This document shows, piece by piece, positions 1,305 through 54,659 of a DNA stretch of 64,000 bases. The stretch comes from Patescibacteria group bacterium. GTDB taxonomy: Bacteria > Patescibacteriota > Patescibacteriia > Magasanikbacterales > GWA2-37-8. Below the pieces are notes generated by a model that was given only the letters and a program-made list of their open reading frames with translations, was not told where the DNA came from and did no database searches. The DNA is taken from the NCBI GenBank assembly GCA_041651015.1, contig JBAZKA010000005.1:1326-65325 (forward strand), given 5' to 3'. Position numbers and translations under genes: made by a program. The first letter of the stretch is position 1, and every line of letters begins with the position of its first letter.

Positions 1305-2426
1305 TTATCCTATCAAACTCGTTTGGTTCATTTTATTTTGGAAATCATCCCAATAATCATTGACCGCGCGCGTCATTTTTTCCTGGAACACGGCCGTGTC
1401 AAATTTTTTCGCGTGTTCGCGGATGGCCGCTGCGTCCCAATTGGCATGATTGAATTTCAATATCGTATCCAAAAGCGATTCCCAATTTTGTTTTTTAAAA
1501 AACACTCCGGTCTGGTTTTCCAAAATCGTTTCGGTCGCGCCACCGCTCTCGTAAGCGATGACCGGCCGGCCCGAAGCCATGGCCTCCACCGCGGTAATGC
1601 CAAAGTCCTCAATCTGCGGATTGATAAAAGCGCGGGCGCGGGACAGTAATTTTATTTTTTCTTCTTCGGAGATAACGCCGAGAAATTCAATATTCGGCCG
1701 GGCAATGTTTTTTAATTTTGTCAGCTCCGGTCCGTCGCCGAAAATTTTAAGCGGTTCTCGTAAACGGTTAAAAGCGGCGATTAGCAAATCAAATTTTTTG
1801 TAAGGCACCATGCGTCCACCCGAGACAAAATAATCCTCGATGTTGCTTGAAGTCATGAATTTATTAATTTCAATCGGCGGATGTATGATTGTGGACTCAC
1901 GGCGATAATATTTGCGGATTCTTTGTTCCACAGTTTTGGAATTGGCGATAAAATGGTCCACGCGGTCCGCGCTCATTTTGTCCCACAGGCGCAACCTGTG
2001 TAATATATTTGGTAAAAATGCCTTTACCGCCGGCGACTGATTTAGCTCGGTGATATATTCATTGGAATCAGCCCAGAGATAGCGGGGCGGGGTGTGGCAA
2101 TAAGAAATGTGCAAGGTGCCGGGCGGGGTAATGACGCCTTTGGCAAACGCGCTGGTGGAGGATAAGACCACGTCAAAATCGCGCAGGTCATGATGCTCGG
2201 TCGCGGATGGCATCCAGGGCAAATACCATTGAAAAGCCGAGCGGACAAATGGCATCTTGGCCAAAAACGATTCTTTGATTTTTTCTTGGTCAAAATAATT
2301 TATTTTTTTCTTATCATGAAACAAAACAAAAATTGGCGCCTCGGGCCAAGTTTCGTGGAGGGCTTTGAGTACTCGTTCGGCCCCTCCGTCTTGTGATAAA
2401 TAATCGTGGACTAATGCTAAACGCAT
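1305..2426 (-). CDS. Glycosyltransferase family 1 (GT4-type)
   Basis: Start chosen at internal MRLALVHDY (ATG at 2426). Shows the N-terminal GT4 substrate-domain pattern and C-terminal GRPVIAYESGGATETI motif. The longer ORF to 2507 would run into a repeat. Confidence 0.8.
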   Translation of the reverse strand: MRLALVHDYLSQDGGAERVLKALHETWPEAPIFVLFHDKKKINYFDQEKIKESFLAKMPFVRSAFQWYLPWMPSATEHHDLRDFDVVLSSTSAFAKGVITPPGTLHISYCHTPPRYLWADSNEYITELNQSPAVKAFLPNILHRLRLWDKMSADRVDHFIANSKTVEQRIRKYYRRESTIIHPPIEINKFMTSSNIEDYFVSGGRMVPYKKFDLLIAAFNRLREPLKIFGDGPELTKLKNIARPNIEFLGVISEEEKIKLLSRARAFINPQIEDFGITAVEAMASGRPVIAYESGGATETILENQTGVFFKKQNWESLLDTILKFNHANWDAAAIREHAKKFDTAVFQEKMTRAVNDYWDDFQNKMNQTSLIG

Positions 2427-2475
2427 ATAATCGATGCAAATATACGAATTTATTCGAATAATACGAATGTGCGAA
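2411..2475. repeat. Distal half of the 85-bp AT-rich promoter-region repeat
   Basis: rc(2411-2475) contains gtattattcgaataaattcgtatatttgcatcgattat, identical to 6461-6500. It abuts the GT4 start codon. Confidence 0.7.
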
Positions 2476-4336: not shown

Positions 4337-5125
4337 TTATTTCCGGTTTTCGTTTAATGCTTGAACGAGCTTTTCGCGAAGAAAATTTATTTTTTCCTTG
4401 TTGATGACGCTGTGTTTCTCTGTACGTTCGGTGTGATTGTCTAATTGAGATAAAATTTCTTCAATGATTTTATTTCTGAGTGGATGGCTATCTATATCTC
4501 CCTCCATTTGTTTTATGTTGGATTCGTCAGTTTCTTTTGAGAATCCTTTATTTTTGAAAGTTATCAGATCGTTAACCATAACGATAAGTTCGTTTGCGTC
4601 TTCTTTGGAAAAATTCACAGTAGCGAGCGCGGTATCAATAGCACAATGTTTTTCCGGATCAATCGGCGATTGATAATATTTAATACTCAGCGGTTCGTTC
4701 GCTCGCGTCAACGGCTTGTCGTTCGCTGAATCCACAATTAAATTTAATGCGAGTGGTATCTCCTCGCCATCGTCATAGACGATAACCAAATCCACTCCGT
4801 TTAATTTCTGGTCGTACTTGCTTGTTTGTCCGGTGTTGGCATCTTTGCCAAACCAATTAAATTTTTGGCCAAGCAAAAATACCGTTTCTCTCAATGTATC
4901 TTTCAAGATGTCATTGTATTTTTTTGCCTCGGCTTCCGATCTCTCCATATCAGTGACGACTTCACCTTTGTCATAATATGCGCCGATAAATTTACGCATA
5001 TTGACTTGTTCGGCTTCGTTTTCGGAGGTGAGATTATCAAAAATATGACGCAAAGTGGCAGCATTGCGTACCTCGTTCTTAATTGATCCATTTTCGTCCG
5101 ATGTTTGGAAACGACTCTCGTTCAT
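4337..5125 (-). CDS. Hypothetical acidic protein
   Basis: 262-aa ORF in line with flanking genes. No motif recognised. Confidence 0.5.
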   Translation of the reverse strand: MNESRFQTSDENGSIKNEVRNAATLRHIFDNLTSENEAEQVNMRKFIGAYYDKGEVVTDMERSEAEAKKYNDILKDTLRETVFLLGQKFNWFGKDANTGQTSKYDQKLNGVDLVIVYDDGEEIPLALNLIVDSANDKPLTRANEPLSIKYYQSPIDPEKHCAIDTALATVNFSKEDANELIVMVNDLITFKNKGFSKETDESNIKQMEGDIDSHPLRNKIIEEILSQLDNHTERTEKHSVINKEKINFLREKLVQALNENRK

Positions 5126-21010: not shown

Positions 21011-21085
21011 TGGTGCGCCTGGATGGATTCGGACCATCGACTTACACCTTATAAGGGTGCCACTCTACCGCTGAGTTACAGGCGC
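21011..21085 (-). tRNA. tRNA-Ile with apparent UAU anticodon (encoded CCA)
   Basis: rc = GCGCCTGTAACTCAGCGGTAGAGTGGCACCCTTATAAGGTGTAAGTCGATGGTCCGAATCCATCCAGGCGCACCA. Anticodon loop CTTATAA. Good cloverleaf. Confidence 0.6.
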
Positions 21086-23489: not shown

Positions 23490-24641
23490 ATGCTTACTTC
23501 AGACTTTGATTACAATTTACCCAAAGAATTGATCGCCCAGACGCCGGCCGAACCGCGCGATAGCGCCCGCCTCATGGTGATTGATAAAAACAAAAAAAGT
23601 TTGGAGCACAAACACTTTTATGATTTGCCGGATTATTTATGTACCGGTGATTTACTTGTTTGGAACAACACCAAGGTATTTAAAGCGCGTCTGCGCGGCA
23701 CAGTTTGTTTGGATGAAAAAGTAATAAAGAACGCGCCGAAAAATAATTCCGAAGTCATTTTGAATGAACCGAAAGTGGAAATATTTTTACTTCGGCCGAT
23801 GGAGAATCGTTTTGTTTGGAAGGTGCTGGCCAAACCGGGTAAGAAATTACAATTAGGCATGAAAATTATTTTTGCCGAAGATTTTTCTTGCGAGGTGATG
23901 TTGAAAGAATCGGACGGCACCGTGCTGGTGCAGTTTGAAGATGACGATATGATCGTGCGAGAAAAAGCCAATCGTTACGGCGAAGTGCCGACCCCGCCTT
24001 ATATTCACCCTGTTAAATCCCCGCAAAGCGGGGTGGCCGCCCAAGGCGGCCAATTTAACAGGGTAAAAAAGTTAGGTGATAATGAGCGATTGGTACTGGA
24101 TTATCAAACGGTTTACGCGAAGAACGAAGGCTCGGTGGCCGCGCCGACTGCCGGTTTTCATTTTACGCCCGAACTCATTGAAAAATTGAAATCACGCGGT
24201 GTGGAGTTTGCCGAGGTGACTTTGCACGTCGGACTCGGAACTTTTCAGCCGGTCAAAGAAGAAAAGTTGGAACAACACAAAATGCACGAGGAATGGGTGG
24301 AATTGACCGATAAAAATGCAGGTTTGATTAATCAGGCCAAGTCCGAAGGCCGGCGGGTGGTCGCGGTTGGCACCACCACGACGCGCGCTTTGGAAGCGAT
24401 TGCCGATGACCAAGGTTTTGTCCGCCCGTTTTCCGGTGATATAAATATTTTTATTTATCCCGGATACAAATTTAAAATTATTGACGCGCTCATCACCAAT
24501 TTTCATTTGCCCAAGTCCACCCTGCTCATGCTCGTCTCGGCTTTTGTGGATGATCGTAAATTTATTTTGGATTGCTATGGTGAAGCCGTTGAAAATAAAT
24601 ATAGATTTTTTTCTTTCGGCGATGCCATGCTGATAAAATAA
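23490..24641 (+). CDS. queA: S-adenosylmethionine:tRNA ribosyltransferase-isomerase with in-frame repeat insertion
   Basis: MLTSDFDYNLPKELIAQTP..., DRERYQTVYA and GSVAAPTAGFHFT motifs. About 20 aa (HPVKSPQSGVAAQGGQFNRV) are inserted between PPYI and the conserved ERL..YQTVYA block. Confidence 0.9.
   Translation: MLTSDFDYNLPKELIAQTPAEPRDSARLMVIDKNKKSLEHKHFYDLPDYLCTGDLLVWNNTKVFKARLRGTVCLDEKVIKNAPKNNSEVILNEPKVEIFLLRPMENRFVWKVLAKPGKKLQLGMKIIFAEDFSCEVMLKESDGTVLVQFEDDDMIVREKANRYGEVPTPPYIHPVKSPQSGVAAQGGQFNRVKKLGDNERLVLDYQTVYAKNEGSVAAPTAGFHFTPELIEKLKSRGVEFAEVTLHVGLGTFQPVKEEKLEQHKMHEEWVELTDKNAGLINQAKSEGRRVVAVGTTTTRALEAIADDQGFVRPFSGDINIFIYPGYKFKIIDALITNFHLPKSTLLMLVSAFVDDRKFILDCYGEAVENKYRFFSFGDAMLIK
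24008..24063. repeat. GC-rich palindromic element copy D, in-frame in queA
   Basis: ccctgttaaat-ccccgcaaagcgggg-tggccgcccaaggcggcca-atttaacaggg. Perfect outer 11-bp inverted repeat, two GC hairpins, CCGCCCAAGGCGG core. Confidence 0.7.
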
Positions 24642-24707
24642 TTCGACACCCTCAGGTAGAGAGTGTCGCAAGTAAAGATCGTCGCTGTCTTCCGTAATTC
24701 GCCTCCA

Positions 24708-24902
24708 TTATTCCGGGTCGTCTTCGTGCCCGACCACGCAACCGCCCAGACCGCACCGTCGAGGATGGCCGACGAGCACTCCGTCCAAGCCGCTGTAATC
24801 TTCTTCCCCATTAACCACGCGGTCCAAAATTTTTTGCCACCCCTCACTGATTTTTTTCCGAAGTGCCTGGTTATTTCTGTAGTCCTTAAGTTTGATGGTC
24901 AT
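24708..24902 (-). CDS. Hypothetical 64-aa protein (third gene of the GC-rich small-protein operon)
   Basis: GAGAGGAGGAAGA-ATG. MTIKLKDYRNNQALRKKISEGWQKILDRVVNGEEDYSGLDGVLVGHPRRCGLGGCVVGHEDDPE. Local GC far above the genome average. Confidence 0.45.
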   Translation of the reverse strand: MTIKLKDYRNNQALRKKISEGWQKILDRVVNGEEDYSGLDGVLVGHPRRCGLGGCVVGHEDDPE

Positions 24903-24913
24903 TCTTCCTCCTC

Positions 24914-25057
24914 TCAATGTGCCGGGCAAGAACGCATGAACACAGCGAACGCCAGCACGATCCACAGGACGGCGAAAGCGATATTCCGCAGTCGCATTTC
25001 CTTTCCGAAGTATTTTTCCAACCAAGTTATTTGCCGCATCATGGCCTTTTTCTCCAT
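24914..25057 (-). CDS. Hypothetical small membrane peptide (about 42-47 aa; second gene of operon)
   Basis: MEKKAMMRQITWLEKYFGKEMRLRNIAFAVLWIVLAFAVFMRSCPAH, one TM. ATGATG overlaps the TGA of the upstream peptide (translational coupling). Confidence 0.45.
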   Translation of the reverse strand: MEKKAMMRQITWLEKYFGKEMRLRNIAFAVLWIVLAFAVFMRSCPAH

Positions 25058-25176
25058 CTGGGAATCGGGAGCGACTCCGCGATTATCTCCGTGGTCACAC
25101 ATACGACCGTGACGGCTGCGAAGAAAATCGCGACAGCATATGCACCCGCGCTCATGTTCCAAGTTTTGTTACCCAT
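25039..25176 (-). CDS. Hypothetical 45-aa small membrane peptide (first gene of operon)
   Basis: CAGAGGAGGTCCC-ATG. MGNKTWNMSAGAYAVAIFFAAVTVVCVTTEIIAESLPIPRWRKRP. Upstream TTGACA-17-TAGGAT promoter-like sequence. Confidence 0.45.
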   Translation of the reverse strand: MGNKTWNMSAGAYAVAIFFAAVTVVCVTTEIIAESLPIPRWRKRP

Positions 25177-25243
25177 GGGACCTCCTCTGTGAAATGTGCC
25201 GTGGCGGCATTGTTTGTTTGTATCCTACTTTATCATCAAAATC

Positions 25244-25319
25244 ATGTCAAACCCCTCACTCAGAAATTTGAGTGAGGGGTCAACAAAAAAATCGCTCCAT
25301 AGAAATGAAGCGATTTTTG
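25244..25319. terminator. Tandem hairpins downstream of rplK (minus strand)
   Basis: cccctcactcagaaatttgagtgagggg and aaatcgctccatagaaatgaagcgattttt with A/T runs on both sides. Confidence 0.6.
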
Positions 25320-25329
25320 ATAGTAGATT

Positions 25330-25752
25330 TTATTCAACAGTCAAACCCATGTTTTTGGCCGTGCCTTCCACCATTTTCATCGCTGATTCAATATTGGTGG
25401 TATTCATATCTTGGATTTTGGCAGTGGCGATTTCACGGATTTGCGCTTTTGTGATTTTGCCAACCTTGTCTTGCAAAGGTTTGGCCGAACCCTTCGGGAG
25501 TTTCAAAACTTTTTTGATCATGTCCGCGACCGGCGCGGCTTTCATAATAAAGCTGAAACTGCGGTCATCGTAAACAGTGATAATCACCGGTACGACTTCG
25601 CCTTTTTTGTCCTGGGTTTTGTCATTGAACTCTTTGCAGAAGCCGGCGATATTCACACCGTGCTGGCCGAGAGCCGGACCGACCGGCGGGGCCGGGTTGG
25701 CGGCGCCACCGATAATTTGCAATTTGATTTGCGTAAGTACTTTCTTAGCCAT
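25330..25752 (-). CDS. rplK: 50S ribosomal protein L11
   Basis: [35 protein letters not shown]. Confidence 0.9.
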
Positions 25753-29231: not shown

Positions 29232-29711
29232 ATGATTACTTTTCGTCCTCATATTAGAGCAGATATACCTTTTCGCGTTAAGTGGCTCAATAACAAGAAT
29301 GCCTCTGTTTACGCCGTGGATGATCCCGGCAAGACTACAGACATTCCGCAACAAACAAAATGGTTTGATGATTATGAACAAAACCCCGCCAAGAGTTTTT
29401 TGACTATTTGTGATGATATAACCCCAATCGGTTTTATGGGTTTGACAGAGATTGATAATATCAAAAAAACAGCAAGCATTTTTATTTTAATTGGGGAGGA
29501 CGAATACCGTGGTAAAGGGATTGGTAAAACCGCTTTGCAGCATTTAATTGATGTTGCTGTTAAGCAAGAGCATCTTGTTTTTTTGAATTTAGGAGTAGAC
29601 AAGCGCAATATTGTGGCAATTAAGTTGTACCAGTCATTAAATTTTTTTACAGTGGCTGAGAATGATAAAGAAATTTTTATGCGTTTGGACAATGGTGGCC
29701 ATCTTGACTAA
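29232..29711 (+). CDS. GNAT-family N-acetyltransferase
   Basis: Acetyl-CoA binding motif EYRGKGIGKTALQHLID, 159 aa. Confidence 0.75.
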   Translation: MITFRPHIRADIPFRVKWLNNKNASVYAVDDPGKTTDIPQQTKWFDDYEQNPAKSFLTICDDITPIGFMGLTEIDNIKKTASIFILIGEDEYRGKGIGKTALQHLIDVAVKQEHLVFLNLGVDKRNIVAIKLYQSLNFFTVAENDKEIFMRLDNGGHLD

Positions 29712-29780
29712 AATCGTTTTATTGGTGTATTATTTTATCGATAAACCTCAATCTCGGGGTTTACAAAGGAGGGTTGGGTC

Positions 29781-29900
29781 ATGAAGAAGACTCCGCAGAA
29801 AGTCTCGACCAATGTTGTTCATGTATGCTTCAAGGGCAACCGAAAGGTGGTGCGCGCCACGCGCGAATCGATCGGTGCCATGAAGTACAAGGGCGAATAG
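29781..29900 (+). CDS. Candidate RiPP precursor-like peptide (39 aa)
   Basis: AAAGGAGGG-7 nt-ATG. MKKTPQKVSTNVVHVCFKGNRKVVRATRESIGAMKYKGE. Followed by hairpin agtggcggagaggactgaaaaccctccgccactttt and then the radical-SAM gene. Confidence 0.45.
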   Translation: MKKTPQKVSTNVVHVCFKGNRKVVRATRESIGAMKYKGE

Positions 29901-29981
29901 TCGCCCGGACAGCTCAACCAGTGGCGGAGAGGACTGAAAACCCTCCGCCACTTTTCTTAACAAGAGGAAAAAGGAGAGAGA

Positions 29982-31340
29982 ATGCACGTTTATGAACGGG
30001 AGGGAAGATTTCTTGTTGTTATTGGCCACATTCCTCAGTGGTTTGTGGTAGACGGGTTTGGTTTGGCGATCGCGCGTGGAATTGAACACGGCTATTCGTT
30101 ACAACAAATTTTGTTAAGGCACGGCAAGGACGTACATTGTGAAGCGGAGGCGGTGTACGCAGATCTCGCGCCGTTAATCAATCAACAAGTAAATCGGACG
30201 ACTGCCATTGTAGAAAACGTTCTTACCTCCAAGACGACGGTCGCCATGATCAGCGTCACCCGGGGCTGCAATTTAAAGAGCATTTGTCCTCACTGCTATG
30301 TGGACGCTAATGGTTCGCGTGGTATAGAACTTACTGTCGTTGAACATCGGAACATTGCCAAGCAACTCCGTGAGTGCATGGCCGCGGACGATCATCATGA
30401 ATATAAGGTGAACCTGACCGGAGGCGAGCCTTTTATTCGCAAGGATATTCTGGACATCATCCAGGCCTACAGCGACGCGGGGTTTTTAGTCAGCATGAGC
30501 ACTAACGCCTTGCTGATTCACCGCAAGTATATGGAATCCTTGAAACGAATGAATGTCACACTGTCCGTTTCGCTTGATGGTTCCAATGCATGCACGCACG
30601 ACCGCATTCGTGGCGCCGGTTCGTGGGAACGTGTGGTCAAGAAAATTCGCATACTGACCAAAGTGGGCGTGCGTGTGGGGATTAACTATCTGGTCAACAA
30701 CGAGAATTTTCTTGACATGGAAAAAACCATCGCACTCGCGCATCAACTGGGTTGCACTGGGTTCAACCCCATCAATCTCGTTCAACTTGGGCGGGCGTGC
30801 ACCGGCACCTTGCACAGGGTTCCCGAAGTGGATATTTTTGGCCACTTAGCCAAACACCTGATCAACAATCCCAGTCACCAACACCTCTTTGCCGCCTCGT
30901 CATTGTTTTCTTCGCTAGGCGCCGCCTTGCTGGCCGGTATCACCTGCGAGAGTTGCGGTGTCGGAAACAGGCCGTGCGTCTATATTGATGAAACTGGCGC
31001 TGTCTATCCTTGCCCCAACACCCAGCGCGCAGAGTTTCTCCTGGGTAATTTACGCACACAGTCGCTACATGATTGCGTTTATCTAGATCATCCGGTTTTG
31101 AGCAATTTACGTAATCTTGAGATCGCTTCTCTTAACCCTATTTGTGGAGATTGTGATGTGCGCTATTTCTGTGGCGGTGACTGTCGCGGCGAGACATATA
31201 ATGTCACTGGAGACCTTCGAGCTCCTTATGTGGCTTGCCAAGATCGTCACGATTCTCTCATAGAACTAATGTGGGTAGTCGCCGATAATCCGCAGCTGTT
31301 CGAAACAAGAGCCGACGAGTATGCTTCGAACCTCCACTGA
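29982..31340 (+). CDS. Radical SAM/SPASM-domain peptide-modifying enzyme with N-terminal PqqD-like RRE
   Basis: N-terminal about 90-aa RRE-like region. Cys triad CNLKSICPHC (Cx5Cx2C), GGEP SAM motif, SVSLDG. C-terminal SPASM Cys clusters (CESCGVGNRPC...YPC, CGDCDVRYFCGGDC). Confidence 0.85.
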   Translation: MHVYEREGRFLVVIGHIPQWFVVDGFGLAIARGIEHGYSLQQILLRHGKDVHCEAEAVYADLAPLINQQVNRTTAIVENVLTSKTTVAMISVTRGCNLKSICPHCYVDANGSRGIELTVVEHRNIAKQLRECMAADDHHEYKVNLTGGEPFIRKDILDIIQAYSDAGFLVSMSTNALLIHRKYMESLKRMNVTLSVSLDGSNACTHDRIRGAGSWERVVKKIRILTKVGVRVGINYLVNNENFLDMEKTIALAHQLGCTGFNPINLVQLGRACTGTLHRVPEVDIFGHLAKHLINNPSHQHLFAASSLFSSLGAALLAGITCESCGVGNRPCVYIDETGAVYPCPNTQRAEFLLGNLRTQSLHDCVYLDHPVLSNLRNLEIASLNPICGDCDVRYFCGGDCRGETYNVTGDLRAPYVACQDRHDSLIELMWVVADNPQLFETRADEYASNLH

Positions 31341-37496: not shown

Positions 37497-38171
37497 ATGG
37501 ACGAACCGCAAAACCGTTTTAGCAAAGAGCAGAAAATCGGCTTGGTTTTGCTGTCTTCTTTTGTCGTACTGGCGGTGACGCTCGGGTTGATTGAAATGCG
37601 TAATACCTTGTATAGTCCGTTTGCTTTGAATAATTCCATTCCGGCTATGATTGGGAGTGATGTGGATACGACCGACGCGTTGCGTTATCGTGATACCGAT
37701 GCTGACGGCCTGAATGATTTTGACGAATTATATGTTTATTCCACCAGCCCGTATTTGGCTGATACTGATTCGGACGGCTTGACCGACAAGCAAGAAGTTG
37801 AAGGTGGTAAAAATCCCAATTGCGCCGAAGGCAAAGATTGCAATGCGTCAATCGCGGAAAACGGTTCGGCCATAATCGCCACCAGTTCCACTGATGTGGC
37901 CGATACCAACACACTGTTTTCAAATTATGATGTGACATCAACCTTGGAAGCCATGCTCACTTCGCCGGATCAGATGAGAACTCTTTTGCTTGAATCCGGT
38001 TTGGCGCAATCAGTGGTGGATAAAATTTCCGATGATGATCTGACCAAAATGGCGTTGGAGATAATGTCTTCATCTACCATCTTGGATAGTATGGAAACCA
38101 CTTCCACTACAGTATCTGATGTGACGACCACGGCGAAATTTATCAATCAACTAATGAATGCTTCGCAATAA
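37497..38171 (+). CDS. Membrane-anchored protein with thrombospondin-type-3-like Ca-binding repeats
   Basis: N-terminal TM. DTDADGLNDFDE / DTDSDGLTDKQE repeats. Its 3' end overlaps the start of the giant gene. Confidence 0.55.
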   Translation: MDEPQNRFSKEQKIGLVLLSSFVVLAVTLGLIEMRNTLYSPFALNNSIPAMIGSDVDTTDALRYRDTDADGLNDFDELYVYSTSPYLADTDSDGLTDKQEVEGGKNPNCAEGKDCNASIAENGSAIIATSSTDVADTNTLFSNYDVTSTLEAMLTSPDQMRTLLLESGLAQSVVDKISDDDLTKMALEIMSSSTILDSMETTSTTVSDVTTTAKFINQLMNASQ

Positions 38172-41100
38172 TCAGCGCTTTATGTTTTTTAACACAAAAA
38201 AATTTGGTTTGAGCGCGATACTTTCAATCTTTGTATTTGTGACCATTTTCGGTTCATTATTTTTTGCGCCGCGTCCGGCGCGAGCACAAATGGACGCAAA
38301 TATTACAAATGCATTCAGGGCATGGCAAGTCAAAGGTACGGTTCAAGAAGTCAAACAAACTCTCAAAGAGAAAGCCCAGTTCATGTTTATGACCGCGCTC
38401 ATGAACGGCTTAAATTATTTTGCCAATAAAATCGCTTATGATATGGGCGTTTGGCTGGCCTCGGGTGATTGGGGTCAAGGGCCGTTTTCCAGCGGAAAAA
38501 GTTTTGGCAGTTATATGGCTCAAGTAGCCGGCGATTCGCTCGGTGAAATGCTTGGCTCACTCAGCGAAGATTTGGGTTTGAATCTCTGCGACTTGCCGGA
38601 TTTGCGTTTGGATTTGGCTCTGCAACTCGGTTTTCATTTTGCGTATAATGAACCAAAGCCGAAATGTTCATGGCAACAACTCCGTGCGGCCTATAATCCG
38701 GAAAATGTTTACAGCAAATATGCTAGTCGCGAGGGCTTGGCCGATAGAATCGGTTTGGGTGTGAATGTCAAAGACACTGATATGGGTATTTGGTTTAAAT
38801 CCAAAGAAACAATTGACGCTTATACCGAAGAACAAGTGGCCGGCGCTTCGGGCGAGGATGCGCGCGGCGAGGGTATCAGCGCCATGACGGAAATTATTTC
38901 CGGCAAACAAGTTACTCCGGCCGCTGCCATGAAACAAGAAATGCTGGCACAAACTCCATCCAAACAGCAAGAAGGGCGCGCGGCTGATACTCGTTCCATG
39001 ACCAATGCCGCTTTGCAAAAAGGCGCGACCACGGTGGCGCTCAACGCAGTCAGTACTTTTGTAAATACTTTACTGGGCACGGTGGTAAATAATTTTGTTA
39101 CCAAAGGCATGTTGCCGGGCGGAAAAACAATTTGCAACCCGGGACTCAGTATTACCGGCGTGGGTTGGAACCAATGCGCTGATTCTGATTCCTCCGACAC
39201 GCTTGCCGCAAATTATTACACCTCTGGTTCGGAAACGGACAACCGCCGGGCGGCTCAAGAATTATTTTCAGAATTGCTCGCGCCGAAAATTACTACTTTG
39301 GAAAATTATGATTTGGCCACCAATATGGCCGAGTGTTCCGAGGATAATAAATCTCCGGACGCCTGCGTGATTGATCAGTCATTCATGCAAATTTTACAGC
39401 AGGCTGATTTGGGTGACGCACTCACCATCAAGCAAGCGATGGAACGCGGACTTTTGCACGGCGATTGGAAATTAATATCCCCGAACAATGCCGAGGAAAC
39501 CGATAAATGGACTTGCGCCGAAGAAGCTTATTGTTATCGCAACATTAAATTTTTACGCCAAGCCAGAATTTTGCCGGTCGGATTTGAAATGGCCGCTTAT
39601 ATCGCCAATGCGTCCACTCCGCCGAGTTTGTCCGATGTGGTGAATGGTTTTTATGATGAATCAAGCGCGTATTATCATTTGATCAATCCACAGTGGGTAA
39701 TCAAAATGCCCAAAATGCGTTGCGCTTCGTATGCTTACGGCGCCGTGGCCCAAGACGGTGTGCGCGTGCAGGAATGTGTGGATTTGCAACATTGCGTCGG
39801 CTACAACAAAGACGGCACCTGCCAATCATGGGGTTATTGTATGAAAGAAAAACCGGTTTGGAAATTTGATGCCGGTTATTGCGATTCAATTTATAGTACT
39901 TGCAAAGCTTTCACCGGCGCAGACGGCGACGCTTCATACCTTACTCGCACATTGGACACCACTGAATGCAATTCAGATAATGTTGGTTGCGCCAGATATT
40001 CGCGCGACAAATATTATGTAAATTCATCAACCGTGGATTGGTATTCGCAGTTGGCCGTATATAATGCCACTGATGAAACTTTTACCAACACCGGAATTCA
40101 TTTTAATAAATCAGTTTCCACTTGCTCGGCCGAAAATGACGGGTGCAGCGCGTTCAAATTAGCGAGTGACAACTCCACTTTATTGTATCTCAAAAAGGCG
40201 CCGGATTATCTGGGTTGCTATGATGCCGACCCGTCAACCGCCGCCAATTCTTTAGCCTTGCTCAACAAAAAAATCTCCAACGGCGTCCAGTGGCCGATGA
40301 CTTTATCCGGCTTGAATTTGATTCAACCGCAAGACAAAAAAGCCTGCGCCAATTACGCGCAAGTTTGTTTGCCCGAAGAAGTAAATTGTAATTATTACAC
40401 GGCTTCATACACCGGCGAGAAAATTCCGGCCAAGTTTACTCCGGCAGTCGTGAGCGACGGCCTGGTGACTTGGAATGATCAATGCGACGCAGTCTGCAAC
40501 GGTTATGCCGCCTACCAAGAAATGCCGAGTAATTATTCCAGCGGGCAAAATTTATCATATATAATACCTTCGTCTGGAAATTCTTGCATTGCTTCGCAAT
40601 CCGGCTGTACCGCTTTTACCAATTTGAATGCCAACTCGGGCGGGATGGAACAAAAAGAATATTTTTCTTATCTGCGCCTCTGCGCTTTGCCTGATCAGAC
40701 CAAGCAAAAAAATTATACTGTTTACGAAAGTTCGGAATCCGGCGGTTATTCCATCAAGACTTACACCCTGGTAAAAAATGACAGCAACAACGGACCCAAA
40801 CAAATTTTCCGCGATGCCGACGAGTATGCCGAGTTAGCCCCGTTATGTTCTCAAACGGCTTATGAAGCCGGCACGGCTGATCCGGATTGTCATCAATTTA
40901 TCGGCGATGATGCCTCCAAATATTACGCGTTTTTATCCAAGACAATTATCGCGACCGACCAATGCACGCCATATCGTCTAAGTTCCCCGGAGCTAATAGC
41001 GTTAACCTCAACCGATTTGCGTTGCGCTTATGATTACGATTATTACGGCGTTGATCGCCGTGCCGGTTCTTCCACCGTGGAATTCAAGAGCAATGCCTGT

Positions 41101-44100
41101 TATTACATGGGCACGACCGTCGGTACCAATGGCGCGGGCGATACGCGCACCTGCAATTCTAATGTTGAATCCTGTCGCGCTTACAAAGGCAATGCCGGCA
41201 ACAACGTCAGATTATTATTAAATGAAGATTTTGAAAATGCCGATTTGACGAATTGGGGTGTGTCGGCCAGTTCCGCGTCCACTGTCACTATTGCCACTTC
41301 CACCGAGTCCACGCAAATTGATGGGCATTCTTTACGCGTGAATGTGAAGACGAATTCTAGTGCAGCCACGGCTTACGCGCAATTAAACGGCCTTCCCGTG
41401 ACCAAAGGTAAAGCTTACACCATATCATTTTGGGCCAAAGGCAGTGCGGCTCTGAAAAGTGTTAGTTTGGCGAGCGCGGATTTTGAAGGTTCGTTTACCG
41501 ACAGCGAAATTAATTCGTCCGATGTTTGGAAATATTATTCCTTCGGTCCGCTAAATTACAACGGCAGCGCGACTACTTCGATTTTATATTTACCTTTGAG
41601 TGCGACCGGCGGCGCGACCCAACAATTATTTATAGACAACATCCGCTTGACCGAGGTGGCTGATTATATATATTTGGTAAAAAATTCTTTGAGCGTCAAT
41701 GCGCTGTGCGACAGTGATACCTCGGATAATTTGCCGGGCGAGGCACTGGGTTGCACGGCTTATTCTGATCCGCTCAAAAATATGTTTTATCTCACCGGCT
41801 TTAATTATCTTTGCCGTGAAGCCGCAGTTGGCTGTACGGCCGTGCTGGACACCTACAACACGCCGGATGATCCCAATGCGCAAGCTTATAATGTTTGGAT
41901 TGCCGGCGCCTCAGGCGGTACCGCATCTGCTACTGTGGGCGGGGAAACATTTACTTGCCAAGTACCGACCGGCGAGACCGGATGTTATACCGATATAATG
42001 GGTTATACGGCGGCACAATTGGTGGCGGCCGGTAATGTTCACTTGACCAGTTCCACAATTTATATTCCGCCGGACACCACCACCTCCACCCCGATTTATT
42101 TGGTAGCCAATCAAAGCGCGACATGCAAAGCGGAAAATTTAGGTTGCGAAGTTTTGGGCAAATCAACGGTGAGTGCCAGCGGATTATCCTATAAGGTGGA
42201 TGGCATTCTGGTAGTCCATTACGAAACATTTGAAGAGACGGCCGTATTAAATAATCCCGCGCTTTATAGCGATACATTGTGTAAAAACGAAGAAGCCGGT
42301 TGCAGCGCGTGGACCTCGGGCGACAGCTCATATTATTTCAAAAAACCAAACGCCACCTGCACATACAAAACAGATAAATTTATTTCCATTGAGCCTCCGG
42401 CCGCCGGCGTGGAAATTAAATCAGTAAATCTAAAAGCCAATTCCATTGGCTGGGTGATGCAGGACACGGGCATTTGCGTGCGAAACGAACTTTCTTCTTA
42501 TGGAATTGTTGGTAGTTCCATCTTTGGTATTGGCGGTTTTATACTTAATTCAGGGTCCCATTACATGGGCCGATACTGCGCTACTGATGCCGATTGTGTT
42601 ATCGGCACCTCTACCGGTACCTGCAAATATGTCAATCAAGTGCCGTGTTATCCGGCTTCAAGAAAACCGAGCGGGGAATATCAATTATGGTCATCGGGTA
42701 ATCCTGTCAAATACTATAATTACGTCGGCACATGTCCACAAGAGCAATCCGGTTGCACCGAGTATGTTGATCATAGTTCATCTGATAATAACGTCTGCGC
42801 CATGACCGGCGAAGTCTGCACTGATGATAGCGATTGTGAGACAGAGGGTGATACTTGCGTGGCAAATGAGGATAGCGCGTATTATTTAATTGATAATGAA
42901 AAACTTCAAGCGCAAGAAGCGGCCTGTAATGGCCAGGTCAGCCAAGCCGAAGGTTGCGCCCTGTTGGACAATACCAATAATCCCAATAAATATTGGAACA
43001 CAACTTCATCATATGCGTTATCAACAAGCAATGATGAAAATTTGGTGACCCCGGTTGATAAAGGCAATGCCAATGATGCTAACACAATTTTAAAAGTCAA
43101 ACACGATCGCGAATGCGCCGAGTGGGCGTATTGTGATTTTAAACAAACATATGTTGATTCGGAAACCAATGAAACCGCTTCGCGCTGTTATCATTTGGGC
43201 GTATGCCAGCAAGCAAGCTCGGCGGTTGGAGTTAGCGGCCGATGCGCGGAAGGTGGCGTAGTGACTGGTAGTTGGCTTGGTAAAGACAAAGTGCTTGATA
43301 AAAATTACTATCAATCCCTTTATTCATCGTGGGATTCAATTGATTTGTCCGGATATTCCATACCTTTTACGTATCAAATACCTGATTTAAGAGTGCGTAA
43401 TGTTGATGATACTAATCGTTTGGTTTATGTGACCACGACCGCATTATGCACTGACGAGACTGATAACGGCAGTGCATGCGGCTCGGGTGGTGCTTGTTAT
43501 AACGGAGAATGCTTATTTAATTATATAGGTCCGGGAAATTCCGTCACTTCGTCACGAAGTATATCTTGTCGCAGCTATCCTGAAGACTCCAGTCCGTTTT
43601 CCACCAGCGTATTGAGTGACAATACGGTTTGGGGCGATGGCGGATCGTCTGGCGGACATTTAATGTCAGCAATATACAAAACCGGTTTTGAAAACACGAA
43701 TTTGTGTTATGATGATTCGGGCGAACTCACCAACAATAAATGTGATTGTAGCTATGATAAATTTCAAACATCGGGTGGGGATATCTTTACTCAGGTCGGA
43801 CGCTCCACCGCTTCGGGCTATGTTTGCTCGGGCGGATCATATAATGGCAAAGATTGCGACGGTTCGGATGATATAGATACCTGTGGCACTGGTGGGACGT
43901 GTTCAAAAGTAAATTCCGTATCAGTCATGACCGGTTGGCAAGGATATTGCATGGAAAAAGATTTACGTCAGACTATAAATGGTACAAGCAATCATCGTTG
44001 TCTTACATGGTGGCCGCTTGAGCTTGCTCCGGGAACTTCAGATATTTGGGCGACTGATCCGAGCGCCGGTTATGAAGTGGGTGAGACCGACGATCGGTAT

Positions 44101-46341
44101 ATGTGTTTGATTAATGCGCCGACCAACAGAAAGCGCTCCACTGCTTATCCTACTTTTAATATGGGAGGTGCCTCAATGCAGGCGGACTGGGGAAATTCCA
44201 CGGGTAGTCTTCAAGGTCCGAATGGTGAGGCGATTCTTTATTCCGGCTCAGCGACTGTTGTTTATAATTCTTTGGAAAATAGCATCGTCACCGGATGTTG
44301 GGACACGAGTGCTAATGCGTTTGATGCTATTTGGGGGTTGTCTATGTCAGATGGAGACGATTCGCAAGGTAAATATTGTCCAATAAATAAAAATACATTG
44401 AAAGAAGCCGGGTCAAATCTCGCTCGGATCAGTTTGCCGGTCGGGCAGACATATTTGCAGAGGAATGATATTGAGAGAATAGATGTTTATCTTGATAAAC
44501 GGTACTCTGGCGACGGTGGTGATGGTGCTGGTTGTAGTGACGGTTGGGTGAGTTTTTACAATGATTTACTTGACGAGAACGAGGATCAATCTTTTATCGT
44601 TAAAGAATGGTTTAGACCGGGTTGTACAAATTCAAGCTGGAGAAAAAAGAGTTTTGGTAGTACCCCTTATTCATTATTAACCGACTGGTATTCGTGGCAA
44701 TGGGAAGGGGGCAATCTCGACGGAGATGGTAATTGGGTTAAAGATAGCAGTATTGTGTACAATCTACAAAACGATACCTATGCGTCCATAACACAAAACA
44801 ATGATTCAGGCAATGGCACTGGTATTCGGATTATATTTGATTCCAAAAATAATTTCAGAGGTATCTGGGTTGATGGCGAAGATAACGCGTCTGGTAGTAC
44901 CGATATGGGATTTTTCTTTGTCATTACTCTACGTGATGGTCGTTGCGCGGAACAATTGCAAATTTCCGATGAAGATGATGAATATTTTGGTTTTAAACCA
45001 TTTACCGGAAGACTAGCACTTGGAGACTTATCTGTCGGTGGAGACTGGGCGGAGTTTGGATTGTCTGCCACTCGCACCAAAGAGATGGATAACCCAAATT
45101 ATGGTTTAAATAGTGATAGCTCACCGCGCACTCTTATCAATCCATTTGTTACGTTATTGGGCAAGTATGGTGCTAACGCCCACAGTCCGCAGGGTATCTC
45201 CGATCCAGATACGGCCATGACAATTCACGCTTCAGATTATGACGCCGGTGTGCCGTTGAGCGTAATGAGGGTGCAAGATGCACCAGCAAGCGAGTACGCG
45301 AGATTTTATGTTGAAAAAGTTAGTGACTGTGCGGCGAACCCGGGTGCACCATATTGTCAGATGCTTAAGCGAATGTTTGCTCGAGTTTATTCGGATAGAT
45401 TGCTGGTGCGCGTGTCGGACGGTGTTTACGCGTTCAAAGATGATCCGACGACATCCGATGGTACAATAGTGGTAAAAAACGGGACATCGGTAGATGACTT
45501 TGACTCTACTGCCGACGCTGCCAATCCGGCAACCGCAAAGACATTAAAATTAATTCTTTATCCGCCACGTGTGGCGGCTCCAACATCTGCCGGTTACGAG
45601 ATAGATGCAGTTGCAGTTAACGGACAAACATCCGGCAATGTGTACTTGGCATCTGGTGCGACTGCGGCGATTCAATTTTACGCGTGGGCTTCACCCAACC
45701 AAATGCCACTGCGCCGTGTCGCGGTCAGAAAAGGCGATGGCACGGATCCAGTAGCGGTTGAGAGCGAAAGTTTAAGTAATAAAAAACCGTCATGCAATAC
45801 AAAATTTTGTGATTGCAATCGCAATACGGGTACAGGTGGAGATGAATTTTGTATTCAGGACCTTAGTGAATTGATGCCTTGTAGTAATGATAGTGATTGC
45901 GACGGATTAACGAACAACACCGTATGCTCAGGCTCTTCCGCCTCCGGTTATACGACCTTTGGCTCGACTTCGGACACCGGCTGCAAAGCCGAACCCTATG
46001 ATTTCATTGTGGATTATTCTTGCCCAATGGGTGGCAGTGAAGGAGCAAAAGTTTATCCATCATCCGCCTCCACCTACGGCATAAATTGGAACACAGACAT
46101 TGTCGCCAATTTCGGTGATGTTCCTTACGTTTGCGCCTTCCAACCCAAAGTTCAGGTGTTGGATAATTGGGGTTGGTGCACTAGTCGAGCGCCAGGTACA
46201 AACGGTGGATGTAATTATTCTTCAAATGAATATGTGAATGGATACGGGTGTTATGCGGAGGATGTATATGATTATTGCGCTTTAAGTAAATCACAACCGT
46301 GGGTACTATATGGTGGTTACGTGGTCGTAGTGCCAATGTAA
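38158..46341 (+). CDS. Giant (2727 aa) Cys-rich extracellular/surface protein with polymorphic C-terminal module
   Basis: Uninterrupted 8.2-kb ORF. N-terminal signal/anchor (FGLSAILSIFVFVTIFGSLFFAP). Hundreds of Cys spaced as in disulfide-rich repeats. The C-terminal 125 aa are homologous to the downstream orphan ORF 47885-48259. Confidence 0.85.
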   Translation: MLRNNQRFMFFNTKKFGLSAILSIFVFVTIFGSLFFAPRPARAQMDANITNAFRAWQVKGTVQEVKQTLKEKAQFMFMTALMNGLNYFANKIAYDMGVWLASGDWGQGPFSSGKSFGSYMAQVAGDSLGEMLGSLSEDLGLNLCDLPDLRLDLALQLGFHFAYNEPKPKCSWQQLRAAYNPENVYSKYASREGLADRIGLGVNVKDTDMGIWFKSKETIDAYTEEQVAGASGEDARGEGISAMTEIISGKQVTPAAAMKQEMLAQTPSKQQEGRAADTRSMTNAALQKGATTVALNAVSTFVNTLLGTVVNNFVTKGMLPGGKTICNPGLSITGVGWNQCADSDSSDTLAANYYTSGSETDNRRAAQELFSELLAPKITTLENYDLATNMAECSEDNKSPDACVIDQSFMQILQQADLGDALTIKQAMERGLLHGDWKLISPNNAEETDKWTCAEEAYCYRNIKFLRQARILPVGFEMAAYIANASTPPSLSDVVNGFYDESSAYYHLINPQWVIKMPKMRCASYAYGAVAQDGVRVQECVDLQHCVGYNKDGTCQSWGYCMKEKPVWKFDAGYCDSIYSTCKAFTGADGDASYLTRTLDTTECNSDNVGCARYSRDKYYVNSSTVDWYSQLAVYNATDETFTNTGIHFNKSVSTCSAENDGCSAFKLASDNSTLLYLKKAPDYLGCYDADPSTAANSLALLNKKISNGVQWPMTLSGLNLIQPQDKKACANYAQVCLPEEVNCNYYTASYTGEKIPAKFTPAVVSDGLVTWNDQCDAVCNGYAAYQEMPSNYSSGQNLSYIIPSSGNSCIASQSGCTAFTNLNANSGGMEQKEYFSYLRLCALPDQTKQKNYTVYESSESGGYSIKTYTLVKNDSNNGPKQIFRDADEYAELAPLCSQTAYEAGTADPDCHQFIGDDASKYYAFLSKTIIATDQCTPYRLSSPELIALTSTDLRCAYDYDYYGVDRRAGSSTVEFKSNACYYMGTTVGTNGAGDTRTCNSNVESCRAYKGNAGNNVRLLLNEDFENADLTNWGVSASSASTVTIATSTESTQIDGHSLRVNVKTNSSAATAYAQLNGLPVTKGKAYTISFWAKGSAALKSVSLASADFEGSFTDSEINSSDVWKYYSFGPLNYNGSATTSILYLPLSATGGATQQLFIDNIRLTEVADYIYLVKNSLSVNALCDSDTSDNLPGEALGCTAYSDPLKNMFYLTGFNYLCREAAVGCTAVLDTYNTPDDPNAQAYNVWIAGASGGTASATVGGETFTCQVPTGETGCYTDIMGYTAAQLVAAGNVHLTSSTIYIPPDTTTSTPIYLVANQSATCKAENLGCEVLGKSTVSASGLSYKVDGILVVHYETFEETAVLNNPALYSDTLCKNEEAGCSAWTSGDSSYYFKKPNATCTYKTDKFISIEPPAAGVEIKSVNLKANSIGWVMQDTGICVRNELSSYGIVGSSIFGIGGFILNSGSHYMGRYCATDADCVIGTSTGTCKYVNQVPCYPASRKPSGEYQLWSSGNPVKYYNYVGTCPQEQSGCTEYVDHSSSDNNVCAMTGEVCTDDSDCETEGDTCVANEDSAYYLIDNEKLQAQEAACNGQVSQAEGCALLDNTNNPNKYWNTTSSYALSTSNDENLVTPVDKGNANDANTILKVKHDRECAEWAYCDFKQTYVDSETNETASRCYHLGVCQQASSAVGVSGRCAEGGVVTGSWLGKDKVLDKNYYQSLYSSWDSIDLSGYSIPFTYQIPDLRVRNVDDTNRLVYVTTTALCTDETDNGSACGSGGACYNGECLFNYIGPGNSVTSSRSISCRSYPEDSSPFSTSVLSDNTVWGDGGSSGGHLMSAIYKTGFENTNLCYDDSGELTNNKCDCSYDKFQTSGGDIFTQVGRSTASGYVCSGGSYNGKDCDGSDDIDTCGTGGTCSKVNSVSVMTGWQGYCMEKDLRQTINGTSNHRCLTWWPLELAPGTSDIWATDPSAGYEVGETDDRYMCLINAPTNRKRSTAYPTFNMGGASMQADWGNSTGSLQGPNGEAILYSGSATVVYNSLENSIVTGCWDTSANAFDAIWGLSMSDGDDSQGKYCPINKNTLKEAGSNLARISLPVGQTYLQRNDIERIDVYLDKRYSGDGGDGAGCSDGWVSFYNDLLDENEDQSFIVKEWFRPGCTNSSWRKKSFGSTPYSLLTDWYSWQWEGGNLDGDGNWVKDSSIVYNLQNDTYASITQNNDSGNGTGIRIIFDSKNNFRGIWVDGEDNASGSTDMGFFFVITLRDGRCAEQLQISDEDDEYFGFKPFTGRLALGDLSVGGDWAEFGLSATRTKEMDNPNYGLNSDSSPRTLINPFVTLLGKYGANAHSPQGISDPDTAMTIHASDYDAGVPLSVMRVQDAPASEYARFYVEKVSDCAANPGAPYCQMLKRMFARVYSDRLLVRVSDGVYAFKDDPTTSDGTIVVKNGTSVDDFDSTADAANPATAKTLKLILYPPRVAAPTSAGYEIDAVAVNGQTSGNVYLASGATAAIQFYAWASPNQMPLRRVAVRKGDGTDPVAVESESLSNKKPSCNTKFCDCNRNTGTGGDEFCIQDLSELMPCSNDSDCDGLTNNTVCSGSSASGYTTFGSTSDTGCKAEPYDFIVDYSCPMGGSEGAKVYPSSASTYGINWNTDIVANFGDVPYVCAFQPKVQVLDNWGWCTSRAPGTNGGCNYSSNEYVNGYGCYAEDVYDYCALSKSQPWVLYGGYVVVVPM

Positions 46342-54400: not shown

Positions 54401-54659
54401 TGCTTTTATAAGTCAAGTTAAGAACGCGGATCAAAATAATGTGGGTCGCGTGTTCCTTCCCGCGTTAATGGCTGACTTGAATGAAAAAATGGAAGCCCTT
54501 GATCCTGCTAAGCTGGATGGATTCCTAAAACATGTAGCCGAAGGCATGACAGACGACAAAGCACTTAAAATTTTAATCAAACGCATGGAGAAAATTTTGA
54601 AAAAATCCGGTAAAACAGAGGCGGAAATTTTAAAGTATTGGAAAGATTCGCATAAGTAA
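51435..54659 (+). CDS. VirB6/TrbL-like polytopic membrane protein with about 700-aa C-terminal coiled-coil/charged extension
   Basis: About 330-aa N-terminal region with 6-7 TM helices in TrbL/VirB6-like spacing, Gly/Ala-rich hinge, then long Lys/Glu/Ala-rich alpha-helical tail. Confidence 0.6.
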   Translation: MNNSLLNKGRWLWQKIKPRRRLGFVSIFLLMSVFLFAMFVVGIHPAYADFGSTLSEWLGNLVLGLAATFMSITVFILKFVIEIASYNHYINAPAVTLGWVLVRDVTNMFFVLILMVIAFGTVLGIEQYEWKKLLVKFVMAAILVNFSRLICGVIIDAAQVFMMTFISGAAATAGGNLVNALHMNDILAFATDADPSALSTDINVLVSAIVACIFAFTAMVVIGAYLLMLIARVIALWICIILSPLAFVLGVIPKFQSYASQWWTEFTNNVLSGPVLAFFLWLAFAVAGGANIHDEFTGANSGYPITDAETAMQEASTATGGEPSMNLNKVLQWENLANFILAAALLLAGVKTTQKLSAAGAGMLGAAAGAATKFAYAASGAAAGLAAAKWTGKTAKAVGKGIAMNVPLVGGNAWKERGENLALNAKLGMQAGKDFYNRQILERGSHAFARTKPGKFLAAAGGVVGLNKGDISSQFMIGTRAAQIKTKKDMLENRIKLAETSVKEPEDLKQKQADLKANVELGKLIKAGVIAKRDEQAWKNLEEKIAPDSKGRGEKLVDMAASMQAKADLFESKHKQEQQVRLLSAKEDVLRKKAGETGIGGYTVEADKAKAERLGIENEKMVKEAGGIDNLTDQQKLEFQKNKQFIDISAAQTKLIEEQTQVAGEQAKQVLLTGAGEESGRLEGIQGRQAELMKEKELITQDNRAIEEIRQLKRIEELLRTSGRMQDLNSSLHGNKIELDDAKIETDRATSELNAKSYEGKGRDDLARLEHAKFANSYFKKMQENFADYSYNDFATEAPAQFKRVQDAAAAYDGVKGTGSPDEAEKTKAYQKEAAKTASFVALSMRDASTYKAVEDAATKVIPYTGDRSPENRQNILASMISGRDMKGKNSVELNSELSGLNRNNQHQVNAMLKILQDNAKTLASKSGYASVVSGVKYDTVKGNYSLGYNKEDADYYSTHANMREATNAYHIIYQDKTGDLNIDVHNENAFISQVKNADQNNVGRVFLPALMADLNEKMEALDPAKLDGFLKHVAEGMTDDKALKILIKRMEKILKKSGKTEAEILKYWKDSHK

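Follow-up and report, generated by a model that had tools for sequence, protein, structure and literature searches.

Small membrane peptides encoded in bacterial genomes have been described in several settings. The toxins of type I toxin-antitoxin systems (Hok/Gef, TisB, Ibs, Ldr, Fst, TxpA/BsrG) are peptides of 40-50 amino acids (aa) with one transmembrane (TM) helix, a charged tail and a strong Shine-Dalgarno (SD) site; they are encoded by lineage-restricted, fast-evolving cassettes that lie between core genes, and a complete system consists of one peptide and an RNA. In holin/antiholin pairs, two adjacent genes whose start and stop codons overlap encode small membrane proteins, and many other small bacterial membrane proteins, such as KdpF, AcrZ and CydX, are accessory subunits of membrane machines. 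A further point of comparison is provided by the ribosomally synthesized and post-translationally modified peptides (RiPPs) matured by radical SAM (rSAM)/SPASM enzymes, among them MftA, PqqA and the sacti- and ranthipeptides. Here we analyze a cassette of three small open reading frames (ORF1, ORF2 and ORF3) located between queA and rplK in a 64,000-nucleotide (nt) stretch of contig JBAZKA010000005.1 of a Patescibacteria group bacterium (assembly GCA_041651015.1), hereafter the window. We show that the region holds a genuine minus-strand operon of three cistrons, which has its own insulated sigma-70 promoter and reuses an old bidirectional terminator of queA and rplK. Our reading of the whole, to which we would give slightly less than an even chance, is that this insulated operon was acquired by insertion and specifies a conflict-type module of membrane peptides and a soluble partner.

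The cassette resembles several of these known modules built on small membrane peptides, namely type I toxins, holin pairs and accessory subunits. ORF1 and ORF2 are like type I toxins in the respects listed above and have the hydrophobic, one-TM character and length below 60 aa by which such toxins are recognized, and the cassette is likewise lineage-restricted, fast-evolving and intergenic between core genes. It differs from type I systems in pairing two peptides with a protein partner instead of one peptide with an RNA: pattern scans of positions 24400-25500, which would leave a non-canonical promoter possible, revealed no plus-strand promoter-like site for an antisense RNA, the region has no Rfam match, and no type I family was matched in Pfam, NCBIfam, PHROG or PADLOC. 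ORF1 and ORF2 share with holin/antiholin pairs the tandem arrangement and the start-stop overlap, but no endolysin, spanin or phage gene is adjacent, the neighbors are queA and rplK at all loci, and there is no PHROG or phage/IMG/VR match. For a class II bacteriocin we found, reading the sequences directly, no double-glycine leader and no cleavable signal peptide, and no ABC transporter/peptidase in the Pfam-labelled syntenic gene tables. The sequence-only reading that preceded this analysis had suggested a bacteriocin/immunity or holin-like module; that suggestion gains no support from homology or from an endolysin, an ABC/C39 exporter or a double-glycine leader, and is a guess compatible with the fast mosaic evolution described below. 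Kinship of ORF3 with zinc-binding anti-sigma factors (ZAS, zf-HC2) was also considered and rejected, its motif being H-x3-C-x4-C, not H-x3-C-x2-C, with no Pfam match. Because none of these tests of membership yielded a match, the cassette is assigned to no known system.

Within the window, queA (23490..24641) and rplK (25752..25330) are convergent, their identities being confirmed by Pfam labels on near-identical proteins and by source names, and the cassette sits between them on the minus strand. It is comparative evidence that decisively establishes the operon, since the same cassette is found in the same place in relatives. Searches of 5.8 billion clusters and of 1.84 billion cluster representatives with ORF3 returned only itself and two proteins: P0002, on contig L001, which is 88% identical, and P0003, of 80 aa, which has only the C-terminal 21 residues in common with it. 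Further cassette-bearing contigs were located through relatives of QueA, and the cassette recurs at the syntenic site in the independent assemblies L001, L002/L003, L007/L017 and L018/L019. In L002/L003, whose QueA is 86-90% identical, the order is secE-nusG-rplK, a 42-aa TM peptide, an ATGA-coupled 38-aa TM peptide, an 80-aa protein and queA. In L007/L017 and L018/L019 (QueA 73-77% identical), rplK is followed by a 45-aa TM peptide with its own promoter, SD site and terminator, and then by a TTGACT-17-TAGGAT promoter, a 48-aa ORF1-like peptide, an 83-aa ORF3-like protein and queA. Position and architecture make it plausible that the L007 peptides are homologous to ORF1 and ORF2. The three consecutive minus-strand ORFs (a 45-aa TM peptide, a coupled TM peptide and a 64-aa soluble protein) that the sequence-only reading had proposed are therefore real, as judged from their coordinates and their recurrence in independent assemblies; among the relatives the small ORFs are conserved and a plus-strand protein is not, the reverse of what that reading had named as telling against it. 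Small proteins are routinely missed. At this locus ORF3 alone was annotated by the gene callers (that of NCBI among them), and ORF1 and ORF2 are missing from a collection of about 15 billion proteins. In the JGI contig L018 a 10-N scaffold gap (4600-4610) falls exactly within the ORF3 motif; the gene calls there are consequently antisense and fragmentary, and the locus was missed by a DNA-pattern scan.

Along the minus strand the features follow the order rplK, hairpin A, hairpin B, promoter, leader, ORF1, ORF2, ORF3, terminator hairpin and queA (Table 1). The sequence of hairpin A is not conserved in L002 (59% identity over the stretch), where another stem occupies the same place. The stems of hairpin B are identical between the window and L002 and its loop differs; this element serves either as an operator or as a further terminator with an insulating role. 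The -10 region of the promoter, AAGTAGGATACAA, is invariant among the window, L001, L002 and L007/L018. Between the window and L002, identity reaches 88% from hairpin B to the ORF1 start codon and 51-59% in hairpin A and the greater part of ORF1 and ORF2; the control region is therefore strongly constrained. ORF1 and ORF3 each carry GAGGAGG 4 nt before their ATG. The ATG of ORF2 overlaps the TGA of ORF1 (ATGA), an arrangement of translational coupling on which ORF2 depends; the GGAG before it is not conserved. The hairpin beyond ORF3 has its homolog in L008 and L009, two cassette-less relatives with one bidirectional hairpin each (GACAC...GTGTC).

Several details of the sequence-only reading can be refined on this basis. 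The TTGACA-17-TAGGAT promoter holds. The coupled overlap of ORF2 also stands, although of the 42-47 aa originally allowed for this peptide only the 42-aa form is conserved, the upstream MEKKAMM start having no ATG in L001 or L002, and the GGAGG sites ascribed to all three ORFs are present on ORF1 and ORF3 and not on ORF2. The downstream hairpin exists, but its loop of 13 nt was obtained by counting only the five outer Watson-Crick pairs; once G-U pairs are counted, positions 24668..24644 form a 10-bp stem with a 5-nt loop.

Table 1. Features of the interval between queA and rplK, in window coordinates.
Feature	Position	Strand	Remark
Hairpin A with U-run, intrinsic terminator of rplK	25287..25318	-	14-nt arms, 93% complementary
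Hairpin B, a perfect inverted repeat of 12-13 bp, directly adjacent to the -35 box	25251..25280	-	Unique in the window
Sigma-70-type promoter TTGACA-17-TAGGAT	25222..25250	-	10/12 positions match
Conserved 45-nt 5' leader with small hairpin UGCCGCCACGGCA and GAGGAGG at 25187..25181	25177..25221	-	SD site and identity with L002
ORF1, 45-aa single-pass membrane peptide	25039..25176	-	
ORF2, 42-aa single-pass membrane peptide	24914..25042	-	ATGA overlap with ORF1
GGAGG core of the GAGGAGG SD site of ORF3	24907..24911	-	
ORF3, 64-aa soluble protein	24708..24902	-	NCBI: hypothetical protein WC457_04185
Invariant C-terminal motif of ORF3, residues 45-63	24714..24770	-	
Terminator hairpin common to the cassette and convergent queA, immediately next to the queA stop codon	24644..24668	-	
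149-aa ORF, rejected as a gene (shadow ORF)	24663..25112	+	

A fourth tiny ORF (24652-24710, minus strand) overlaps the stop codon of ORF3 (TAATG); it spans 18 aa in the window and 6 aa from the same ATG in L001 (L001 676-729), and L001 and L002 share a second ATG 12 nt downstream of its ATG that is missing in the window and L007. It is not conserved and probably meaningless.

The coding character of the cassette is clearest for ORF3. Its codon-usage log-likelihood ratio is 0.198 bits per codon, compared with 0.28 for real genes, and just 0.3% of out-of-frame windows score as high. The protein is hydrophilic, cytoplasmic and mostly acidic, with a fast-evolving N-terminal part, and ends in RRCGLGGCVVGHEDDPE; the corresponding motif, G-H-P-R-[RL]-C-G-L-[GV]-G-C-V-[VA]-G-x-E-D-D-P, includes H-x3-C-x4-C followed by EDDP. 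Over the 19 codons of this motif, comparison of the window with L002 gives 11 synonymous differences and 2 non-synonymous ones (pS 0.75, pN 0.05, the proportions of synonymous and non-synonymous sites that differ), and in the five other frames pN is at least about a third of pS; strong purifying selection on the motif is thus confined to the sense frame. AlphaFold models of both ORF3 forms have a mean confidence (pLDDT) of 58-59 and comprise one or two N-terminal helices with the motif disordered; the invariant residues C50 and C55 lie within this disordered tail. ORF1 and ORF2 both reach about 2.3 in their best 19-residue Kyte-Doolittle window (2.33 in ORF1). The N-terminus of ORF1, MGNKTWNMSxGAYAV, is conserved and its C-terminal tail occurs in two allele classes, VCVTTEIIAES... 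and AGVAVELALDW...; ORF2 conserves KYFxKxxRLRN and a C-terminal RxCPAH. Among the relatives the start codons, stop codons and ATGA overlap are retained, the ORFs stay open, and the indels within them are in frame (9 nt in ORF1 against L001 and L002, 12 nt in ORF2 and, between L007 and L018, 3 nt in ORF3).

Neither the small proteins nor their relatives matched any family in Pfam, NCBIfam, PHROGs or PADLOC. No candidate protein shared words with ORF2, a protein-pattern scan of metagenomes gave no match, and no paralogue of the cassette proteins is present within the window. Judged by these searches, the three proteins constitute new clade-restricted families: sequence orphans with comparative evidence of translation, in a lineage of the candidate phyla radiation (CPR) whose accessory functions are almost unknown. 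Several matches were set aside. Those on L005 and L006, from the scan of genome contigs, lie out of frame in large GC-rich genes and are therefore due to chance, as were judged six metagenome DNA-pattern matches (L011-L016). P0004, a 74-aa ORF at 970-1194 of contig L004, contains two tandem copies of VIGHPRRFGLGGFV, similar to the GHPRRCGLGGCV of ORF3 with Phe for Cys (E = 6e-4, whole library). The same contig encodes a 315-aa protein with a Ribosomal_L30 domain (PF00327) and may be eukaryotic; the DNA of the tandem GHPRRFGLGGF is unlike that of the window, and the resemblance is probably fortuitous.

The queA-rplK junction of more distant relatives provides a clean before-and-after view of a 0.65-kb gene insertion between two core genes. 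The same convergent pair without the cassette is found in L008, L009/L010 (a Candidatus Magasanikbacteria metagenome-assembled genome), L020/L022 and L021, where the queA-rplK spacer, the comparison that the sequence-only reading had recommended, measures 40-104 nt and holds one bidirectional hairpin. Because these relatives keep such short spacers, the cassette is a clade-specific insertion. The genomes with the cassette form a subclade whose RplK proteins are 98-99% identical, and their RplK identity to the cassette-less genomes does not exceed 82%; the cassette was seen only in this subclade. Most simply, a segment of about 0.65 kb was inserted once, when the subclade arose, between the stop codon of rplK and the old terminator, and was then inherited vertically; a new terminator for rplK would then have been added upstream of the cassette. 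That the interval might be a relic of rplA (uL1) was rejected: the window shows no uL1 similarity by tblastn with an Escherichia coli L1 query, and the outgroup spacers leave no room for the gene.

Composition and translation signals set the cassette apart from its surroundings. Its GC content is 0.523, compared with a window mean of 0.446 (standard deviation 0.041, 551-nt windows), which places it at the 97th percentile; the claim that it stands far above its flanks was correct in direction and overstated in degree, for other places in the window reach 0.555. GC content at third codon positions (GC3) is 0.60-0.63 for ORF1-3 against a mean of 0.50 (standard deviation 0.08), among the six highest of 47 genes. 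GGAGG occupies the SD position in 1 of the 42 other confident window genes (Fisher p = 0.003 against ORF1 and ORF3), the leaders of rplK, nusG, secE, gyrB and queA being AT-rich, and the contrast is repeated in L002 and L007: GGAGG precedes all three small ORFs of L007 and none of nine neighbors. The few other GGAGG-led genes of the window look accessory (they encode an HD-domain protein, a protein resembling lipoproteins that contains a DSD repeat, and a peptide of 39 aa), and GGAGG-led genes are richer in GC3 (Mann-Whitney p = 0.008). From the raised GC3, itself a modest signal, the GAGGAGG boxes set against SD-poor neighbors and the GC3-rich, accessory-looking company of the other GGAGG-led genes, we infer fairly strongly that the cassette was acquired horizontally from an SD-using donor of higher GC content. 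The horizontal acquisition that the sequence-only reading had read from composition is thereby upheld, mainly through the cassette-less relatives and the SD contrast, the compositional signal alone being modest. In this SD-poor CPR genome, a strong SD site combined with raised GC3 marks a small set of probably foreign genes, and so provides a cheap flag for horizontal acquisition or for a special translation class. Examples of GGAGG-led sites in the window are 6341(-), 20896(-), 29781(+), 47003(-) and 51187(-).

A minority of SD-led genes is known from other genomes that rarely use SD sites, for example rpsU in Flavobacteriia. The present case is similar in that few strong, conserved SD sites occur amid AT-rich, SD-less leaders, and it differs in that the SD-led genes of the window are accessory, GC3-rich and probably foreign, in a lineage that may even lack the anti-SD motif. 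In the window and in every relative examined (including L008, L009 and L020-L022), rplK is not followed by rplA or rplJ, and tblastn of E. coli L1 and L10 found no match in the 64-kb window. The missing rplA after rplK is consistent with a uL1-lacking Parcubacteria lineage. A published survey reports that such Parcubacteria are mostly without an anti-SD motif (PMC9297842), with which the scarcity of SD sites in the window agrees. The window contains no 16S rRNA gene, an Rfam scan of the region and of the whole window detecting just two tRNAs, elsewhere. The cassette might accordingly belong to a small class of GGAGG-led, GC3-rich accessory genes whose boxes, which in diverged lineages are conserved ahead of each small ORF with its own initiation, would, if the 16S rRNA were without CCUCC, serve a non-canonical purpose such as dedicated initiation or regulation for acquired genes, a view on which we would place little weight. 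The locus also offers a way to ask whether the reduced ribosomes of CPR bacteria still use SD pairing.

The cassette evolves rapidly at the protein level. Between the window and L002 its pS (0.4-0.77) is similar to that of rplK and queA (0.42-0.51), and its non-synonymous divergence is 5-20 times higher; pN/pS over whole ORFs is 0.3-0.97, with 1.28 for the near-identical ORF3 pair of the window and L001, compared with 0.01-0.27 for the neighbors rplK, nusG and queA. Divergence is also patchy. The window and L001 are identical over 181 aligned nt upstream and nearly so downstream, and differ at 43 of 79 columns in a patch spanning the ORF1 tail and the ORF2 start, including an in-frame 9-nt indel, as well as in ORF3 codons 5-12 (7 of 21 positions) and just past the ORF3 stop (11 of 19). 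L007/L017 and L018/L019, haplotypes each present in two independent samples, differ in the homologous ORF3 segment by synonymous and non-synonymous changes and a 3-nt indel. The tail classes of ORF1 cut across the lineage tree, VCVTT..ES being found in the window and L007 and AGVAVELALDW in L001 and L002. The pattern looks like recombination between long-lived divergent alleles. Mutagenesis by a diversity-generating retroelement was dropped as an explanation because the 64-kb window contains no second copy of any cassette segment that could act as a template repeat and the substitutions are mixed, many of them transitions, with no adenine bias; they affect synonymous as well as non-synonymous sites and are accompanied by in-frame indels. 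Other indel hot spots exist in the intergenic parts of these loci, and the haplotypes sampled are few. Two features of the locus are unusual: the SD-led genes stand in a CPR genome that is otherwise SD-poor and probably without uL1, and alleles are mosaic across lineages.

As to function, a conflict-type role, in which a membrane-peptide toxin would be accompanied by an antidote or immunity partner, is our preferred reading, although with low confidence. It is favored because the cassette is accessory, inserted, fast-evolving and allelically mosaic, has a tightly conserved, insulated promoter and lies in a neighborhood that collects accessory genes. The three products might assemble into a small complex at the membrane, with the tail of ORF1 and the basic N-terminal segment of ORF2 on the cytoplasmic side, as the positive-inside rule would predict. 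The acidic ORF3 could dock on these basic segments, and its H-x3-C-x4-C loop may bind a metal or a partner. Should the operon turn out to serve toxin immunity or interaction with a host, it would be relevant to the ways in which episymbiotic CPR bacteria compete or interact.

Several observations weigh against the reading of the cassette as an acquired conflict module. No toxin, antitoxin, holin, bacteriocin, immunity or defense family was matched; a profile search against the PDB gave nothing meaningful; and relatives were lacking among phages, plasmids, IMG/VR viral contigs, JGI metagenomes (pattern scans) and GTDB species genomes. The donor lineage was not found among the 1.84 billion cluster representatives, the family being confined to the clade. 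Purifying selection on ORF1 and ORF2 is weak (pN/pS 0.3-0.97), and their function as proteins is therefore less secure than that of ORF3. L007 has no ORF2 between its ORF1-like and ORF3-like genes, a gene order different from that of the window, and alignment of its peptides with ORF1 and ORF2 by hhalign (P = 0.05 and 0.007) lends weak support to their homology. The mosaic patterns come from few, partly short metagenome contigs, of which L001 might be an assembly chimera. Finally, the cassette has been kept at a single locus by stable vertical inheritance (pS up to about 0.8), which agrees with a useful physiological role as well as with an addiction module.

This last point leads to an alternative that fits nearly as well as the conflict role, and which we consider unlikely without being negligible. 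The peptides would be small subunits or regulators of a membrane machine (a transporter, translocon or envelope enzyme), ORF3 a metal or redox sensor acting through H-x3-C-x4-C, and the extracytoplasmic RxCPAH tail of ORF2 would bind metal or form a disulfide. The invariant Cys and His residues of ORF3, the conserved RxCPAH of ORF2, long retention at one locus (pS 0.4-0.8) and a strongly conserved regulatory region all agree with this proposal. Families of this kind returned no match, however, no partner gene lies in or beside the operon, whose neighbors are queA and rplK, close relatives manage without the cassette, and high pN/pS with mosaic alleles would be odd for a housekeeping accessory subunit.

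The weak selection on the two membrane peptides raises a different, improbable alternative: that only ORF3 is functional, ORF1 and ORF2 being either upstream ORFs of a long leader, whose translation would control ORF3, or decaying remnants. Their pN/pS is 0.45-0.97 in most comparisons, their codon-usage scores per codon are ambiguous (0.02 and -0.05), and both the annotation of ORF3 alone and the arrangement in L007 could be read in the same way. Yet the TM character, the first 15 residues of ORF1 and the two conserved stretches of ORF2 have been retained despite about 50% nucleotide divergence, with every indel in frame; a strong, conserved SD site precedes ORF1, whose pN/pS is 0.31 between L001 and L002; and the ORF2-like 45-aa peptide of L007 has a promoter, an SD site and a terminator of its own.

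A RiPP locus is quite improbable. The proposal draws on a module on the plus strand at 29232-31340, formed by a GNAT acetyltransferase (29232-29711), a GGAGG-led 39-aa peptide, MKKTPQKVSTNVVHVCFKGNRKVVRATRESIGAMKYKGE (29781-29900), with a terminator-like hairpin, and an rSAM/SPASM protein (29982-31340; PF04055 and PF13186), which is itself a candidate RiPP cluster. ORF3 would be a precursor whose Cys-bearing core is cross-linked by this enzyme, ORF1 and ORF2 would provide immunity or export, and the two modules would have been acquired together; in one variant, ORF3 and the 39-aa peptide could both be substrates of the nearby enzyme. ORF3 is indeed small, with a disordered, invariant C-terminal segment that contains two Cys residues, as a core would. 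The best NCBIfam matches of the enzyme, all below cut-off, are peptide maturases such as StsB, WgkB and MftC, the 39-aa peptide resembles the cassette in its GGAGG box and high GC3, and an AGGAG-type site precedes the rSAM gene. L022 is without both the cassette and the entire GNAT-peptide-rSAM/SPASM module at the otherwise conserved syntenic site, a co-occurrence seen in this one genome only, and as joint absence. Against this, the maturase stands outside the operon, 5 kb away, with four core genes (rplK-nusG-secE-gyrB, on the other strand) in between, and has a candidate precursor of its own in the adjacent 39-aa peptide. At 64-83 aa with a helical N-terminal part, ORF3 is long for a precursor; it varies most in its would-be leader, contrary to what holds for most RiPPs, and no precursor family was matched.

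The weakest alternative, that the true gene is the 149-aa ORF on the plus strand and that the minus-strand ORFs arose by chance, has hardly any prospect of being correct: a long open frame does occur in the window, L001 and L002, and one caller placed an antisense ORF in L018, but its ends shift from genome to genome (149, 132 and 189 aa, with a split into 98 + 99 aa in L007), it has no SD site or plus-strand promoter-like site, its GTG start falls within the terminator hairpin, it scores poorly in codon usage (-0.08), and over the ORF3 motif its pN (0.24) exceeds its pS (0.18). A codon-aligned antisense frame over ORF3 is the classic shadow frame, and the ORF is one, in keeping with the sequence-only reading, which had already pointed to its GTG start in the hairpin and missing SD site.

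The wider neighborhood contains further accessory genes, namely a Bro-N gene in L002, an extra 171-aa ORF in L018 and the GNAT-peptide-rSAM/SPASM module of the window. The first two mark the gyrB-secE junction as another variable spot in the clade: the Bro-N gene lies just upstream of secE in L002 (1-321, minus strand) and the 171-aa ORF is at 1957-2472 (minus strand) of L018, and neither is present in the window. The Bro-N domain is associated with phages or mobile elements.

Elsewhere in the window, a tRNA-Ile with a TAT anticodon, read as UAU by ARAGORN, is encoded at 21011-21085 on the minus strand. In bacteria AUA is usually decoded by a tRNA with a lysidine-modified CAU anticodon, which makes UAU unusual. 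Two very large ORFs occupy 38158-46341 (2727 aa) and 51435-54659 (1074 aa) on the plus strand; giant surface proteins are common in CPR genomes.

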